Of a stretch of DNA of 5,009 nt, positions 797 to 5,009 are shown one piece after another. The notes below the pieces were generated by a model that was not told the DNA's origin, searched no databases, and saw nothing but the letters and a program-made list of their open reading frames with translations. The position numbers and the translations under genes were made by a program. The number at the start of each line of letters is the position of its first letter. Position 1 is the stretch's first letter. The stretch comes from an archaeon. GTDB taxonomy: Archaea > Iainarchaeota > Iainarchaeia > Iainarchaeales > CSSED10-239. Location: assembly GCA_035387745.1 (NCBI GenBank), contig DAOOON010000015.1, positions 12,825 to 17,833 on the forward strand. The letters are read 5' to 3'.

Positions 797-1804
797 ATGC
801 AGGAAATAGACAAATTTGACATGCGTTTTTTAGTAGAGTTAGAGAAAGATTCCAGGCAGCCAATCTCTAATATCGCAAAGCTTCTTAAAACCTCACAGCA
901 AGTCTTAAGTTATCGCCTAATTAATTTAGAAAAACGTCATATAATTCTTGGTTTTTACACAGTTATTAATTTTGTTAAATTAGGTTATACCAGCTACAGG
1001 ACAATGATAAGATTAACAAATATTTCTCCAGAAATTCAAGCAAGGCTAATTTCTTTTATAAAAGAAGACAACAATGTATCTTATCTTGCAGAATGTACAG
1101 GACACTGGGATTTGATTGTTGATTATCTTGCAAAGAACATTGTTCAATATTATTCTTTCTTAAAAGACATAAGAGAAAAGTTTCCGGAGAATATTGGAAG
1201 CATAGATGTTCTAACAACTCTTGAAAACATATATTTTGGCAGAGATTATTTTGCAAAGAAATACAGAGAAATAAACAAGAAATCATTTATTGACACAGAT
1301 TATCTAACCACAGAAAAATTAGATAATTTAGATTTAAAAGTACTTTATGAAATATCTAAAAATGCAAGAGTCGGTGCTATGGAGCTTGCAAATAAAGTTA
1401 AGACTTCTCCAAACACCATAATCTACAGAATAAAGAGCATGCAGGATAGAAACATAATCGAGGGCTTTAAACCATATCTAAATATTGAGAAGACCGGAAG
1501 ATTTGCTTACAAGTCTTTAATAAAGTTCAATAACATTAATGAGCAAGCAGAAGAGCTGTTGATTACTTTTCTTCAGAATAATCTGTGTGTCTTTGATATC
1601 ACAAAGGTTATTGGTTATTGGGATTTTGAGATTGACTTTGAAGTTAAAAACTCAGATGAGATGATTGATTTTACAAGAACAGTAAGAGAGAATTTTAAAG
1701 ATTTAATAAAAGAGTTTGAAACAACCCCAATCTATAAAGAACACATTTTCAATTATTTCCCTGGAGATCTTCTGTCTCCTGAGAAGAAAAGTAAGAAGAA
1801 ATAA
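797..1804 (+). CDS. Tandem (two-module) Lrp/AsnC-family transcriptional regulator, 335 aa
   Basis: The track ORF 713..1804 starts at a GTG. Its first 28 residues (MNLKLYICFSQNFCENAIFICIFLINTN) overlap the promoter elements and look non-native, so ATG 797 (MQEIDKFDMRFLVELEKDSRQPISNIAKLLKTSQQVLSYRLINLEKRHIILGF...) is preferred. That segment is the classic Lrp/AsnC N-terminal HTH followed by an effector-like domain (YLAECTGHWDLIV). A second full module starts near nt 1316: LDNLDLKVLYEISKNARVGAMELANKVKTSPNTIIYRIKSMQDRNIIEGF... followed by ITKVIGYWDFEID. The two halves align along their whole length. Confidence 0.85.
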   Translation: MQEIDKFDMRFLVELEKDSRQPISNIAKLLKTSQQVLSYRLINLEKRHIILGFYTVINFVKLGYTSYRTMIRLTNISPEIQARLISFIKEDNNVSYLAECTGHWDLIVDYLAKNIVQYYSFLKDIREKFPENIGSIDVLTTLENIYFGRDYFAKKYREINKKSFIDTDYLTTEKLDNLDLKVLYEISKNARVGAMELANKVKTSPNTIIYRIKSMQDRNIIEGFKPYLNIEKTGRFAYKSLIKFNNINEQAEELLITFLQNNLCVFDITKVIGYWDFEIDFEVKNSDEMIDFTRTVRENFKDLIKEFETTPIYKEHIFNYFPGDLLSPEKKSKKK

Positions 1805-2332
1805 TTATTCTGTTTTTTCTTTCTTTGGGAAGATTTTTATTGTAATGCTAAATATCATTCTTGCTACAAATTCTATAATTACAATGAACACAAAATAATA
1901 TACTAACAATGATAATTTAGAAGGTATGTCTTTTAATAATTCTATAACTGTAGGCATAGAGAAATAAGAAACATTTACTAAAAATATTCCAAGAAGTGTA
2001 AATGGAAGCATCTTTGCTAAATCTCTAGATAAGTCTTCGTCGTGATATGCTGTAATTCTTATTGCTCCAATTAATGCAATAGCAGTTAACAATATTGTTT
2101 CAATGGTTAGTCCTTCTGCTAAGAAAGAAAGGATTATTGTTAATACTACAAAACTAAAGAAAATTATAATTGGTGTAAAAAAGAGATACTTTATAACATA
2201 TAAAATATTATAGAATAGTTTTTTAAAAAAAGAATTTTTCGCATCTTTGTATTTTTCTAAACTTATAGAAACAATGTCTCTTTTGGCAATAAATCTATAG
2301 AATTTAAAAATAAATATAGAGTAAATAACCAT
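1805..2332 (-). CDS. Multi-pass integral membrane protein of unknown function, 175 aa
   Basis: Four to five hydrophobic stretches of transmembrane length: FFTPIIIFFSFVVLTIILSFLA, IETILLTAIALIGAIRITA, MLPFTLLGIFLVNVSYF and LSLLVYYFVFIVIIEFVARMIF. There is a short charged loop (YHDEDLSRDLAK) and a Lys-rich C-terminal tail. No family motif was recognised. A TATA-like AT-rich segment lies about 27-30 nt upstream of ATG 2332, around 2358..2368. Confidence 0.7.
   Translation of the reverse strand: MVIYSIFIFKFYRFIAKRDIVSISLEKYKDAKNSFFKKLFYNILYVIKYLFFTPIIIFFSFVVLTIILSFLAEGLTIETILLTAIALIGAIRITAYHDEDLSRDLAKMLPFTLLGIFLVNVSYFSMPTVIELLKDIPSKLSLLVYYFVFIVIIEFVARMIFSITIKIFPKKEKTE
1808..1838 (+). terminator. 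Oligo-T tracts immediately after the Lrp-like stop codon, a candidate archaeal intrinsic terminator
   Basis: A T6 run at 1813..1818 sits within a T-rich tract from 1808 to 1826 (TTCTGTTTTTTCTTTCTTT). A T5 run follows at 1834..1838. Archaeal RNA polymerase terminates at oligo-T stretches. These tracts lie inside the last codons of the convergent membrane-protein gene. Confidence 0.35.
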
Positions 2333-2406: not shown

Positions 2407-2427
2407 AAAACGCAATTATATTTATAT
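2407..2427 (+). promoter_or_regulatory. Second copy of the AAAACGCAAT-[TAT]-ATTTATAT promoter-like motif, plus-strand oriented, overlapping the helicase stop codon
   Basis: AAAACGCAAT at 2407..2416 is identical to 756..765. ATTTATAT at 2420..2427 is identical to 766..773, with a 3-nt TAT insertion between the two blocks. In the plus orientation it would start transcription near 2451, antisense to the helicase 3' end. Alternatively, the reverse-complement TTTATATAT (2409..2401) could serve the downstream membrane-protein gene. Confidence 0.3.
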
Positions 2428-4332
2428 TTGTTTTGTTGTAGTTTTTTTACTAAAAAATTCTTCTATCTCTATTTTAAGGTCTTTACTAATAACAAACTGC
2501 ATATCCTTTGGGAAACATTTTCTATAGTTCTCCCAATGGAATCTCGCATCAATAAAAACAATTACTCCTTTGTCTGTGTCTGTTCTTATGACTCTTCCAG
2601 CGCTCTGAATTACTTTTTGTATTGCAGGATGAATATAAGCATAGTTCCAGCCATTTCTAAACTTAATCTCATAATAGTCAATCTTTGCTTTTGTCTCGAT
2701 CTCCATCTTTGCAAGAGGTATTCCAACAATCACTGCGCCGATAAGAAGATTACCAGGAAGATCAATTCCTTCAGAAGCTTTTCCCCCCATTACAGCCATT
2801 AGTACGCTTCCAAACTTTTTAGAGTGTTTCTTAAACCCAAGAATCATTTCTTCAAAGTCCTTGCTATCCATTCTTTCTTCTTGAACAATAGTTGGTTTAT
2901 TACAATTAATTAATGGAATAATATCTCCTAAAACTTCAAAGCTTGGAAAGAAAACAACACAGTTACCAGGAATTGCATTTACACACTTCTCAACGTGGCT
3001 TGCAATCTTTTTATACTCTAAATTGTTTCTTTGCGTGTATTTTGTAGAAACATCAGTAATCAAAAGATTTAGTCTTTTTTCTTTTTCAAATGGCGAAGAA
3101 TATTCTTTTGTTGTTGTTTCTTCTTTTTTCAATCCTAAGATATCTGTATACATTGAAAGCGGAGTAAGTGTTGCTGACATCAAGATTGAAGAATAGCAGT
3201 TTTCAAATATTTTCTTAGTTAGTGGAGAGACATCTAAAGCATTATACTTAACACTAATCCCGTTCTTTTCTTTTCTTATAAACCGGATGTGCGCATCTTT
3301 TTCTTTTATCCATTCTTCAAGGAATAACCCTACAGAGATAAGAGCAGAGCTGCTTTCTTTTAGGTCTTCAATATACTTAAGTCCTGATTCATCAAGTTCT
3401 TCAATAACTGAAATAACGTCTTCTCTAATTTCTTTTATCAAGATTTCTTCTTTTTCGATTCTATCTTCTTTTATTTTTTCTAGTTTTTTTTCTGCAATTC
3501 TTTCGATGTGGTCTAGTTGTTTTTCAATAAGGTTTTTAAGTTTGTTATTCTTGATTTCTTTTGCTTCTTTTATTGCTCGATGAAGCGTATTTGTGTTTAA
3601 GGATTTAGAAATCAGTTTCAAAAGTCTGTCCTCAAGGTTATGCGCTTCGTCAATAACAATTATACATTCTTCTAAGTTGACTCCAATCTCCGAAAGTGTT
3701 GATTCCATAACCTTGCTTGAGAAAACATGATAGTAGTCTGCAATAATAACTCTGCAGCTTTTAGCAAAAAGTTTTGCAAGCTCATATGCACAAACAGGCT
3801 GTCTTTCTCCTGTTGCGCTCTTTAGTTCTTCTGCTATCTTTTTAATTTCAAGATGTGTTAAGACTTCTTTTTCTGATAGCTTCTTTTCTAAAAGATAAGC
3901 TAATAAGTCTCTTTGTCCTTTGTTACTTGGTCTAATATTTTCAAAAAAAGGGCATTGTTTTTTTTTGCACGCCATAAGACAGATTTCATAAAAGTTAGAA
4001 TCGGTTCTTGAGATGACTGGCTCGATGCACATGTTTTTCTTTCCAACAAAGTCAATGGCTTTAATCTTTAAGTCATATTTATCGTTAAGATCATCAATAA
4101 CTTCTAAAGCAATCTTATGTTGAGATATCTTTGGAGTCAAGAAAAGAACTTTCAAGTCCTTCTCAATAGCCAAGGTGATTGCTGCAGAAAGAGCAGAGTC
4201 TGTTTTTCCAGTCCCTGTTGGTGCATGCACAAGTATGTTTTTCCCTAAGGAAATACTCTCATAGATATCCCTAATGATATCCTTTTGTCCTTTTCTAAAA
4301 GAATCATGTCTAAAATAAAGTTGCGCTTTCAT
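2422..4332 (-). CDS. xpd: XPD/Rad3-family (DinG-like) superfamily 2 5'-3' DNA helicase with an Fe-S cluster domain, 636 aa
   Basis: Motifs verified in the nucleotide sequence: Walker A HAPTGTGKT (nt 4227..4201) and DEAH box in VIDEAHNLED (DEAH = nt 3651..3640). Other motifs seen: Q-motif-like FRKGQ, motif III SILMSATLTP, motif IV VVFFPSFEVL, motif V MGGKASEGIDLPG and motif VI QSAGRVIRTDTDKGVIVFIDARF. A cysteine cluster sits between motifs Ia and II (C102, C118, C122, C127, C181; nt 4029..3790), as in the XPD 4Fe-4S domain. A Lys/Glu-rich helical insert (residues about 250-310) sits where the Arch domain would be. Confidence 0.93.
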   Translation of the reverse strand: MKAQLYFRHDSFRKGQKDIIRDIYESISLGKNILVHAPTGTGKTDSALSAAITLAIEKDLKVLFLTPKISQHKIALEVIDDLNDKYDLKIKAIDFVGKKNMCIEPVISRTDSNFYEICLMACKKKQCPFFENIRPSNKGQRDLLAYLLEKKLSEKEVLTHLEIKKIAEELKSATGERQPVCAYELAKLFAKSCRVIIADYYHVFSSKVMESTLSEIGVNLEECIIVIDEAHNLEDRLLKLISKSLNTNTLHRAIKEAKEIKNNKLKNLIEKQLDHIERIAEKKLEKIKEDRIEKEEILIKEIREDVISVIEELDESGLKYIEDLKESSSALISVGLFLEEWIKEKDAHIRFIRKEKNGISVKYNALDVSPLTKKIFENCYSSILMSATLTPLSMYTDILGLKKEETTTKEYSSPFEKEKRLNLLITDVSTKYTQRNNLEYKKIASHVEKCVNAIPGNCVVFFPSFEVLGDIIPLINCNKPTIVQEERMDSKDFEEMILGFKKHSKKFGSVLMAVMGGKASEGIDLPGNLLIGAVIVGIPLAKMEIETKAKIDYYEIKFRNGWNYAYIHPAIQKVIQSAGRVIRTDTDKGVIVFIDARFHWENYRKCFPKDMQFVISKDLKIEIEEFFSKKTTTKQI

Positions 4333-4674
4333 TTATTGTTTCTTCTTAAATCCAAAGATTTGGTTGTATTTTTCGTGGTCAACAAATTCTACAATCACAA
4401 CAACAATTTCAATTTCGCCAGTTCCTGTAATTGTATATAAAAGTCTCCAATAGTCTGCTAGTCTTACTTTAAATAAAAATTTAATATTGTATTTTTTTAA
4501 AAACCATTTTGGTATTTGTTTAGATTTTATTGGTTCTCCAAAATGAGGGTCTTGTTTAAGCAATTCTATTTTTTCAGCAATAGATTTACTAATCATTTTT
4601 CCAAGTTTACTATTATCTTTATTTATCTCTGAAATTGTCTTTTTGGCAGTTTCAGAAAATCTAATTTCTACCAT
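4333..4674 (-). CDS. RelE/ParE-superfamily type II toxin (mRNA interferase-like), 113 aa
   Basis: MVEIRFSETAKKTISEI...IAEKIELLKQDPHFGEPIKSK...LFKVRLADYWRLLYTITGTGEIEIVVVIVEFVDHEKYNQIF follows the RelE/ParE pattern: a short N-terminal beta strand, a helical hairpin, the core (R/K)(L/V)RxGDYR(I/L)IY-like strand, and a C-terminal H/R-x-x-x-Y. It resembles archaeal RelE. The track start at 4680 is a TTG; ATG at 4674 is preferred. It is preceded by AGGA (4685..4682) with a 7-nt spacer. It overlaps the upstream ORF by 14 nt, typical of antitoxin-toxin coupling. Confidence 0.75.
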   Translation of the reverse strand: MVEIRFSETAKKTISEINKDNSKLGKMISKSIAEKIELLKQDPHFGEPIKSKQIPKWFLKKYNIKFLFKVRLADYWRLLYTITGTGEIEIVVVIVEFVDHEKYNQIFGFKKKQ

Positions 4675-4978
4675 ACACAATTCCTTTTTTGATAATGTCT
4701 TTTAGTTTTTTTGTTGCGGGATGTATATAAGTTATTCCTTTTTTAGAATATATTATTTGGTTTGTGTGTTGAAAATATTTTAATATTTGTTCTAAATGTT
4801 CCTTGCTCACTTTATCCTTAACCTTTTTTTCAAGTTCTTTTTCTTTCATGATTGCTTCAGGATATTTTTCAAGTATGTCTCTTATAAAGAACACTTCGCT
4901 ACCAGTAGGGTAATAATCAATCATTGGTTCTTTAAGTTTTTTTGTTTTCTTTTCTTTAACAACATATTTTGTAGTCAT
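4661..4978 (-). CDS. Putative cognate antitoxin: basic 105-aa protein with no recognised family and a possible C-terminal winged-helix
   Basis: It sits immediately upstream of the RelE-like gene and overlaps it by 14 nt (its TAG is at 4663..4661; the toxin ATG is at 4674..4672), which is the canonical antitoxin position. The protein is Lys/Glu-rich. The segment VSKEHLEQILKYFQHTNQIIYSKKGITYIH looks like a recognition helix plus beta-hairpin wing. No RHH, Phd, AbrB or Xre-type motif was recognised. Confidence 0.6.
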   Translation of the reverse strand: MTTKYVVKEKKTKKLKEPMIDYYPTGSEVFFIRDILEKYPEAIMKEKELEKKVKDKVSKEHLEQILKYFQHTNQIIYSKKGITYIHPATKKLKDIIKKGIVYGRN

Positions 4979-5001
4979 AATAATAATAGTACCAAAAACA
5001 G

Positions 5002-5008
5002 TATTTAA
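5002..5008 (-). promoter_or_regulatory. TATA-like box (TTAAATA on the minus strand) for the three-gene operon
   Basis: The reverse complement of 5001..5009 is CTTAAATAC. The box centre (about 5005) is 27 nt upstream of ATG 4978. This is the same spacing seen at the Lrp-like gene and implies a leaderless operon transcript. Any BRE would lie beyond the window edge. Confidence 0.4.
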
Positions 5009-5009
5009 G

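Follow-up and report, generated by a model that had tools for sequence, protein, structure and literature searches.

Does a repair helicase that shares an operon with a toxin–antitoxin (TA) pair belong to that system, or is it a neighbour? The question is raised by a 5,009-nt stretch of DNA (contig DAOOON010000015.1; hereafter the window) from an uncultured DPANN archaeon, in which three minus-strand genes follow one another behind a single conserved promoter: a small gene encoding a candidate antitoxin (105 aa), another encoding a candidate toxin (113 aa), and xpd, encoding an XPD/Rad3 helicase. A preliminary description of this stretch offered two readings, one of a mobile TA cassette that had landed between xpd and its promoter, the other of a three-component module to which the helicase belongs. 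The cassette reading has held up and the three-component reading has not. We consider it very probable that the pair is a type II TA cassette, made up of a winged-helix antitoxin and a RelE/YoeB-like toxin, which lies in an accessory-gene hotspot and is co-transcribed with a housekeeping xpd outside the system. We take xpd for a neighbour rather than a third part because close relatives carry a different pair, the antitoxin alone, or nothing at this position.

The pair has a history separate from that of xpd

Identical or near-identical copies of the window occur in metagenomic contigs and metagenome-assembled genomes of an uncultured archaeon (L001–L006; related loci are numbered in this way throughout), and relatives further away are labelled Candidatus Iainarchaeum, Diapherotrites or Pacearchaeota at NCBI. 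Synteny around xpd is conserved among them, with a flavodoxin/Fer4 gene divergently upstream and Lrp/AsnC, TrpRS, NT5C, Pyr_excise and CNNM genes downstream. The preliminary description had named xpd at the same locus, without the two upstream genes and with its own promoter, together with pair homologues never linked to a helicase elsewhere, as what would mark an incidental insertion. An xpd without the pair was found at the syntenic locus in at least six lineages (L023–L027 and L029). In L024, a similar promoter element, GGCCAGGTACCCCCACAAAG ... TTAAATA ... TTTTGG, stands immediately 5′ of xpd, which fits the pair sitting between xpd and what was originally xpd's own promoter.

Distant homologues of the pair, with toxin identities of 38–45%, were found at five loci in species-representative genomes labelled Woesearchaeota or Methanosarcinales. 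Each of these encodes an 86–97-aa antitoxin-family protein followed by a 105–123-aa toxin homologue, in an unrelated context, and in none of the five does xpd lie within 7 kb of the pair. The toxin gene is disrupted in two of them, by a frameshift in L015 (3830-4200) and by a C-terminal truncation in L019 (6947-7264), with the upstream winged-helix gene intact, a pattern that fits toxin-first decay.

Decayed alleles also occur at the xpd locus itself. In L028 (1687-2003; xpd ∼86% identical), a 93-aa antitoxin homologue stands orphaned: of the toxin gene, only the final ∼25 nt (...GFKKK stop) remain between it and xpd. In L029 (2728-2821) and L038 (3′ end), where xpd is again ∼86% identical, ∼30 nt from the 5′ end of the antitoxin gene, without its ATG, are joined to the last ∼20 nt of a methyltransferase-like gene, with xpd next. 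A single frameshift also interrupts the xpd of L029 within an A-run near codon 380, possibly through an error of assembly. For an unbiased sample of what follows the promoter, metagenome contigs were searched with the promoter sequence alone; this gave 14 matches, six of which (L031, L032 and L034–L037) were discarded as unrelated chance matches. It was this search that brought in the two decisive alleles, the orphan antitoxin of L028 and the scar of L029 and L038.

Divergence between loci tells a similar story. Relative to the window type, L009 has an xpd 91% identical and a flavodoxin 90.5% identical, compared to 54% for the antitoxin and 51% for the toxin. Relative to L007, the order is reversed, with xpd 63% identical, antitoxin 81% and toxin 72%. 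The same reversal between pair and xpd is repeated in the dN (nonsynonymous divergence) values. It follows that exchange of the cassette has been independent of the genes on either side.

One lineage retains a direct footprint of the insertion of promoter plus pair before xpd. Codons 1–25 of xpd occur twice in L007 and L010, as exact 76-nt copies. One lies right after the stop codon of an HD gene, and the other, 835 nt downstream, forms the head of the full xpd; promoter and pair lie between the two. Beyond the exact copies, weaker similarity continues for ∼40 nt upstream, taking in the 3′ ends of the HD and toxin genes (84% over 97 nt in all). The HD gene followed directly by xpd, as in L023, is presumed to be the ancestral arrangement. 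Relatives of the toxin were found neither on viral contigs (toxin alignment scan) nor on plasmids (tblastn), which gives no indication that known viruses or plasmids carry the pair. The G+C content of the pair (∼25–27%; xpd, ∼30–37%) is a modest compositional hint of accessory origin. Taken together, the pair-free relatives, the L024 promoter, the L028 and L029 alleles and the duplication in L007 and L010 support the idea of a mobile cassette between xpd and its promoter.

The two small proteins

The 113-aa protein had been called RelE-like, and this is borne out at the fold level. Its AlphaFold2 model (predicted local distance difference test, pLDDT, 80.8; elements H8-19, H23-41, E47-49, E67-71, E76-84 and E90-99) shows the N-terminal helical hairpin on a 3–4-stranded antiparallel sheet by which the RelE/ParE fold is recognized. 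In a Foldseek search of the PDB, ranks 1–12 were all ParE, YoeB, HigB or YafQ toxins (probability 0.82–1.0, TM ∼0.5–0.58). At the sequence level, the protein makes a marginal pass with the Pfam model PF05016 (ParE_toxin; 23.3 bits, cut-off 23.0), as do the toxins of four relatives (23.1–24.0 bits). The NCBIfam model RelE_StbE gives 17.1 bits for the window toxin, under its cut-off of 27.9, and the YoeB_toxin model gives 25.9 bits for the L017 toxin against a cut-off of 27. PADLOC returned no match for the toxin. The family profile matched YoeB in the PDB (E = 0.011), placing R77 opposite the Arg of the YoeB 'HRLVY' strand. Invariant residues comprise Y75-W-R77-L-L-Y-T, H100 and Y103, and ratios of nonsynonymous to synonymous substitution (dN/dS) of 0.12–0.35 indicate purifying selection. 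The modelled structure thus confirms the protein as a member of the RelE/YoeB/ParE toxin superfamily at the level of fold. The conserved C-terminal His/Tyr and Arg would sooner indicate an RNase of the RelE/YoeB kind than a gyrase inhibitor like ParE, two activities that sequence does not separate here; the toxin is presumably a ribosome-dependent mRNA endonuclease.

The candidate antitoxin begins with a disordered, Lys-rich stretch, continues as a winged helix-turn-helix over residues ∼27-84 and has a C-terminal helix at 90-98. Its AlphaFold2 model (pLDDT 68.5) has the topology H-b-H-H-wing-H, and Foldseek matched it to winged-helix proteins only, all of them weakly (E >= 0.16). The protein is accordingly predicted to be of the winged-helix, i.e. 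DNA-binding, type. No Pfam or NCBIfam family matched it; in PADLOC, it drew a weak AbiEi match (E = 0.003), and the pair was assigned to no defence system. Among 1.84 billion representative proteins, a profile search collected 152 clusters, nearly all of stand-alone proteins of <175 aa; the lone exception, of 310 aa, is a short partial profile match. No consistent Pfam family emerged among the 45 scanned. dN/dS values of 0.09–0.24 point to purifying selection here as well. Every family member viewed in its genomic context lies 5′ of a RelE/YoeB-like toxin gene or its remnant, and the archaeal loci are labelled DPANN-type or Methanosarcinales. These results document an uncatalogued family of putative winged-helix antitoxins (∼150 clusters at 50% identity) for which Pfam holds no model.

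The helicase

The product of xpd exceeds the cut-off of TIGR00604 (rad3; 266.5 bits versus 246.95), contains the domains DEAD_2, HBB and Helicase_C_2, and aligns over its full length with the archaeal XPD structures 4a15, 2vsf and 9p55. The four iron–sulfur (Fe-S) cysteines of XPD (C102, C118, C127 and C181) are present, and conserved in L007 and L009. The earlier assignment to the Fe-S XPD helicases is confirmed, and the protein is an ordinary housekeeping XPD/Rad3 outside the TA module. In PADLOC, the protein (window 2425-4332, minus strand) scores 389 bits (E = 9e-117) with model PDLC01439, 'typeIV_DinG, CAS-IV-A associated', and there are no cas genes nearby. This match is most likely a generic XPD/DinG hit, because the gene is the clade's syntenic orthologue, passes the TIGR00604 cut-off and has no cas genes in its vicinity. 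PDLC01439 seems to capture ordinary archaeal XPD and could yield false defence-system calls.

Gene junctions

Strand reading and the list of open reading frames (ORFs) confirmed all coordinates of the arrangement first described: three spacerless minus-strand genes, a 14-nt overlap, an AGGA before the toxin start and the junction CAA TAA ATG. The antitoxin and toxin ORFs share positions 4674..4661, and the spacer between the toxin TAA and the xpd ATG is zero. The pair thus has the architecture of a type II TA system: two small genes side by side in one orientation, the antitoxin gene first and overlapping that of the toxin. The overlap amounts to 8–14 nt in all relatives. We placed the toxin start at ATG 4674 (113 aa) rather than at the extension in the ORF list (TTG 4680, 115 aa), because every homologue begins MVEI, MVRI or MIKL. 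The AGGA falls within the conserved KKGI codons of the antitoxin, and a GGA or GGG is kept in all pair types, although this conservation is confounded by that of the antitoxin protein itself.

The phrase 'translationally fused', used at first for the pair and xpd, does not apply, as the ORFs are separate and a stop codon lies between them. In the window, the xpd ATG is in frame with the toxin ORF, but the in-frame arrangement is not conserved among relatives: the junction is TAA CAA ATG (a 3-nt gap) in L011 and L013, and the gap is 5 nt in L007 and 2 nt in L010. The most that the sequence supports is that xpd is possibly coupled translationally to the toxin. Because toxin genes of related loci abut or overlap whatever lies downstream (a methyltransferase-like gene in L009, L020 and L030, xpd here), the tight packing is unremarkable, zero spacing being the norm in these genomes.

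Promoter and conserved upstream element

The TTAAATA upstream of the first gene is located as first reported, 23 nt from ATG 4978 and centred at about −27. It had been called the only promoter-like element, but as a TATA-like heptamer it is not alone: TTWAAWA also occurs on the minus strand at 4494-4501, 3839-3845 and 3533-3539. TATA-like heptamers number 24 in the window, compared to 35 expected, and are neither enriched nor rare in this DNA of 25–35% G+C. The element at 5008-5002 is set apart by its geometry, its near-invariance and the BRE-like (transcription factor B recognition element-like) CGAAAC box upstream of it in all related loci. The ∼60 nt 5′ of the antitoxin ATG read CAyTGGACAAcyACCCCCGAAAC-ac-TTAAATA-ctGTTTTTGGTAcTATTATTATT (60-bp promoter sequence, CATTGGACAACCACCCCCGAAACACTTAAATACTGTTTTTGGTAC), and this promoter is almost invariant in every locus of the clade, even where the pair proteins are only ∼50% identical. 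CGAAAC followed by TTAAATA is, judged by the archaeal consensus, a good BRE/TATA pair. Promoter geometry was judged from the upstream regions of 44 genes in related loci. The flavodoxin and Lrp genes of these genomes likewise have their TATA centre ∼27 nt ahead of the ATG; other genes carry GGTG or GGAG leaders. A leaderless first cistron is plausible because the geometry matches that of the flavodoxin and Lrp promoters, and the 23-nt spacer, which contains no Shine–Dalgarno sequence, fits a leaderless transcript.

No Shine–Dalgarno sequence precedes the xpd ATG, and no TATA-like sequence lies 24–30 nt 5′ of it. A possible internal xpd promoter was considered, and the sequence evidence for one was rejected. 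The sole TATA-like stretch near the toxin 3′ end, GATTTAAG/GATTTAAAAAG (−19..−10), is too near the xpd ATG for a transcript begun from it to contain that codon, and it encodes the family-wide FGFKKK tail, which is conserved in homologues unlinked to xpd.

In this clade of AT-rich DPANN archaea, then, the pair lies between a conserved BRE/TATA promoter and xpd, and in the strain of the window a single leaderless mRNA would most probably cover all three genes. Translation of the toxin would be coupled to that of the antitoxin via the 14-nt overlap and the AGGA, and xpd would most probably depend on read-through transcription and be translated by termination–reinitiation at UAA-AUG. The coupling first argued for the helicase is therefore plausible. 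Beyond this, we infer toxicity, neutralisation, autorepression of the promoter and a regulatory effect on xpd.

The upstream element is not confined to the pair. L024 and L025 have it although they encode no antitoxin there, and it also stands before unrelated cassettes (RhuM, HD). A motif, TGG[AC]C[AC]-N3-7-ACC[CT] followed by GAAA and a TATA box, recurs before co-oriented genes at this site, namely those of the TA pair, RhuM and HD, a further small gene in L039 and, in L024, xpd. It was matched 16 times in 203 kb (both strands), compared to 1.8 times in shuffled sequences (maximum 5), and could be the operator of a small regulon or a recombination site. Scans of the window with Rfam (permissive threshold) and for tRNA genes, which take in the smaller part of the conserved element, most of it lying outside the window, gave no match and hence no evidence that it is an RNA gene or a tRNA-type attachment site.

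Contents of the site upstream of xpd

The stretch 5′ of xpd is an accessory-gene hotspot, occupied in various relatives by restriction–modification genes, a diversity-generating retroelement (DGR), RhuM and methyltransferase-like genes (Table 1). L021 (xpd 73% identical) was not scored for the pair, as its contig ends 255 nt upstream of the methyltransferase-like gene. The DGR of L012 (2817-6543), located between the flavodoxin gene and the TA pair, comprises a reverse transcriptase (RVT_1), the accessory protein bAvd and a target protein of 450 aa whose C-terminus is FGE-sulfatase/C-type-lectin-like. The type II restriction–modification system of L027 (1534-3460), whose XPD is 60% identical, consists of an N6_N4_Mtase and a HinfI-like endonuclease. 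Proteins of the methyltransferase-like family (240–270 aa) give weak matches to Methyltransf_23/25 and carry an LDDGAGxGxF motif. Intact copies of the gene lie immediately before xpd in L020, L021 and L030, L020 has a paralogue upstream of the pair (1531-2340), and the L009 copy is a pseudogene in three pieces. Repeats flank two of the insertions in L002: a 12-bp direct repeat, CTACCCCCGAAA, at RhuM (L002:8529-8544, 9650-9664), and, at the SSF transporter, a 37-nt direct repeat (86% identical) of flavodoxin-proximal intergenic sequence (L002:7073-7109, 8480-8516).

Two further genes of the window lie beyond the operon. At 797-1804 (plus strand) is a tandem-domain Lrp/AsnC regulator with two HTH_AsnC domains, for which relatives indicate a start at ATG 797, not at the GTG 713 of the ORF list. 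A gene for a 175-aa multi-pass membrane protein (1805-2332, minus strand) is convergent with it, with zero bases between.

Table 1. Features of the operon in the window and of the site upstream of xpd in related loci. Positions are those of the window unless a locus is given.
Feature	Location	Strand	Remarks
Candidate antitoxin gene, 105 aa	4978..4661	minus	ATG 4978, stop TAG 4663-4661 (minus-strand reading and ORF list)
Candidate toxin gene, 113 aa	4674..4333	minus	ATG 4674-4672, stop TAA at 4333
xpd, 636 aa	4332..2422	minus	XPD/Rad3 superfamily-2 5′-3′ DNA helicase
Walker A, GTGKT	4215-4201	minus	residue 40
DEAH	3651-3640	minus	residue 228
AGGA, Shine–Dalgarno-like	4685-4682	minus	7 nt 5′ of toxin ATG
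Toxin stop/xpd start junction, CAA TAA ATG	4338..4330	minus	direct reading
TATA box of operon promoter, TTAAATA	5008..5002	minus	23 nt to ATG 4978; centre ∼−27
Conserved 23-nt spacer, CTGTTTTTGGTACTATTATTATT	4979..5001	minus	TATA box to first ATG; no Shine–Dalgarno sequence inside
BRE-like CGAAAC box and upstream TGGACA..ACCCCC element	just past window end	minus	seen in related loci
Recurring-motif sites	L001:9645-9696 and equivalents in L002, L005, L007, L009, L011–L013, L020, L023, L024, L028, L039		window 4979-5009 holds 3′ part only
76-nt duplicates of xpd 5′ end	L007:7811-7886 and 8646-8721; L010 ∼986-1061 and 1817-1892		
Methyltransferase-like genes	L009:5904-6656; L020:1531-2340, 3431-4987; L021:256-978; L030:1767-2528		
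Pair type A immediately before xpd	window, L001, L003, L011, L013		
RhuM and SSF transporter, or C1 peptidase, then pair A	L002, L004, L005, L006		
DGR, then pair A	L012		
Pair type B, then methyltransferase-like pseudogene	L009		pseudogene in three pieces
Pair type C, then methyltransferase-like genes	L020/L041, L030		one or two intact genes
HD gene, then pair B	L007, L010		
HD gene alone before xpd	L023		
Restriction–modification system before xpd	L027		
Flavodoxin/Fer4 gene, 103-nt spacer, xpd	L024		no gene between; xpd 58% identical
No co-oriented gene before xpd	L025, L026		different divergent gene 290–320 nt upstream

Alternative explanations

Some of these observations weigh against reading the pair as a TA cassette. 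Confidence in the antitoxin model is moderate, and none of its structural matches is significant. Membership of the toxin is borderline by sequence (23.3 versus 23.0 bits, RelE_StbE below cut-off, TM ∼0.55), and the position of the YoeB general base Glu46 is Lys or variable in the family. At least three divergent pair types have been kept, under purifying selection, beside xpd across lineages in which xpd is only 63% identical. Such persistence exceeds what simple accidental insertion would give, and the position could be selected, e.g. for expression from the xpd promoter. If these were two small lineage-specific proteins of unrelated function, sharing with RelE and ParE no more than a fold, then threshold-level scores, a toxin that PADLOC does not match and catalytic residues incompletely conserved with respect to YoeB or RelE would all be accounted for. 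We regard this as very improbable, since a small gene of DNA-binding type overlapping a downstream RelE-fold gene is the canonical layout, and since the 12 best structural matches are all TA toxins. Patchy, context-independent distribution (the distant loci), toxin-first decay (L028, L015 and L019) and cassette-type replacement (at least three types at one locus) are, furthermore, typical of type II TA systems.

Long retention of divergent pair types at exactly this site, purifying selection on both small genes (dN/dS 0.09–0.35), the survival of the antitoxin in L028 after loss of the toxin, and the extreme conservation of the promoter might instead mean that the winged-helix protein, alone or with the RelE-like protein as its co-factor, has been domesticated as a dedicated transcriptional regulator of the xpd operon, the pair being kept here for control of xpd and no longer acting as an addiction or defence module. 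We think this rather unlikely. The promoter element is not specific to the pair, occurring without an antitoxin in L024 and L025 and before RhuM and HD; many relatives express xpd without the pair; and the antitoxin family is found elsewhere in unrelated contexts. Orphan antitoxins are, besides, a common stage of TA decay. A further alternative is a module in which XPD is a functional third partner, inherited with the pair. That the pair abuts xpd in both the window type and the L007/L010 type is what such a module would predict, as are the shared upstream promoter and an xpd with no obvious promoter or Shine–Dalgarno sequence of its own, and the 389-bit match to typeIV_DinG might be added. 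However, that match is most likely generic, pair and xpd do not co-occur (none of five distant loci within 7 kb, pair-free xpd at the syntenic locus in at least six lineages), and their phylogenies are discordant rather than congruent. The toxin alone has been lost in L028 and the whole pair in L029, and methyltransferase-like genes separate the pair from xpd in L009, L020 and L030. A third-partner helicase is thus highly unlikely. No described RelE-XPD module was found in the literature searched, and the loci compared here argue that there is none, which removes a tempting false lead, a RelBE-XPD three-component system.

How the cassette came to lie where it does is a separate matter. The site 5′ of xpd may be a dedicated cassette-acquisition site, whose cassettes are shuffled by recombination at the TGGACA-N4-ACCC..GAAA-TATA element in a loosely integron-like manner. 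The element precedes each co-oriented cassette (the TA pair, RhuM, HD, another small gene, and xpd), and insertions are flanked by duplications, either of this element or of the xpd 5′ end; 12-bp and 37-nt duplications also flank insertions at the site. We offer this as a speculative proposal with little chance of being right. If true, it would place expression of a repair helicase under the autoregulated promoter of whichever TA cassette sits first. The hotspot, with its cargo and its recurring promoter-proximal motif, may merit a separate look.

The TA cassette reading makes the locus useful in another way. At a single locus, metagenomes offer a natural allele series (pair intact, pair swapped, antitoxin orphaned, pair cleanly deleted, site empty as in the ancestor) that illustrates how a chromosomal TA cassette comes and goes in reduced genomes. 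These alleles are also ready-made controls for asking if an essential gene downstream can pass under the control of a TA promoter.

Comparison with known systems

The closest known systems are YoeB-YefM and RelBE (PF05016, PF06769). Shared with these are the antitoxin gene upstream of and overlapping that of a ∼110-aa toxin, a toxin fold predicted to be that of ParE/YoeB/HigB/YafQ, the conserved Arg of the 'RLVY' strand, and a C-terminal His/Tyr. The differences lie in the antitoxin, which is predicted to be a winged-helix protein rather than YefM/Phd, RelB (ribbon-helix-helix) or HigA (XRE) and has no Pfam model; in the toxin, which has an invariant YWRLLYT...DH..Y..FG(F/Y)KKK signature and lacks an equivalent of YoeB Glu46; and in the host, a DPANN archaeon. 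ParDE is similar in that PF05016 (ParE_toxin) is the best Pfam model and a ParE-type toxin (5ceg_B) the top Foldseek match. However, ParE is a gyrase poison, and the C-terminal His/Tyr and Arg of the toxin described here may point to a RelE/YoeB-like RNase instead.

Tripartite TA systems exist, for example those composed of toxin, antitoxin and chaperone. Like these systems and helicase-containing defence systems such as type IV CRISPR DinG/Csf4, the locus has three co-oriented genes behind one promoter and a PADLOC typeIV_DinG match. It differs in that neither the inheritance nor the distribution of the third gene follows that of the pair, in that there are no cas genes, and in that the helicase is the syntenic xpd of the clade. 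The third gene resembles, instead, archaeal XPD (Thermoplasma acidophilum Ta0057; 4a15, 2vsf) in its full-length alignment, Walker A, DEAH, four Fe-S cysteines, HBB/arch and Helicase_C_2. There is nothing notable about the protein itself; the upstream neighbourhood alone varies. The system is most probably of a known kind, type II TA, and what sets it apart is the predicted winged-helix antitoxin family that has no Pfam model, the family-specific toxin signature and the DPANN host.

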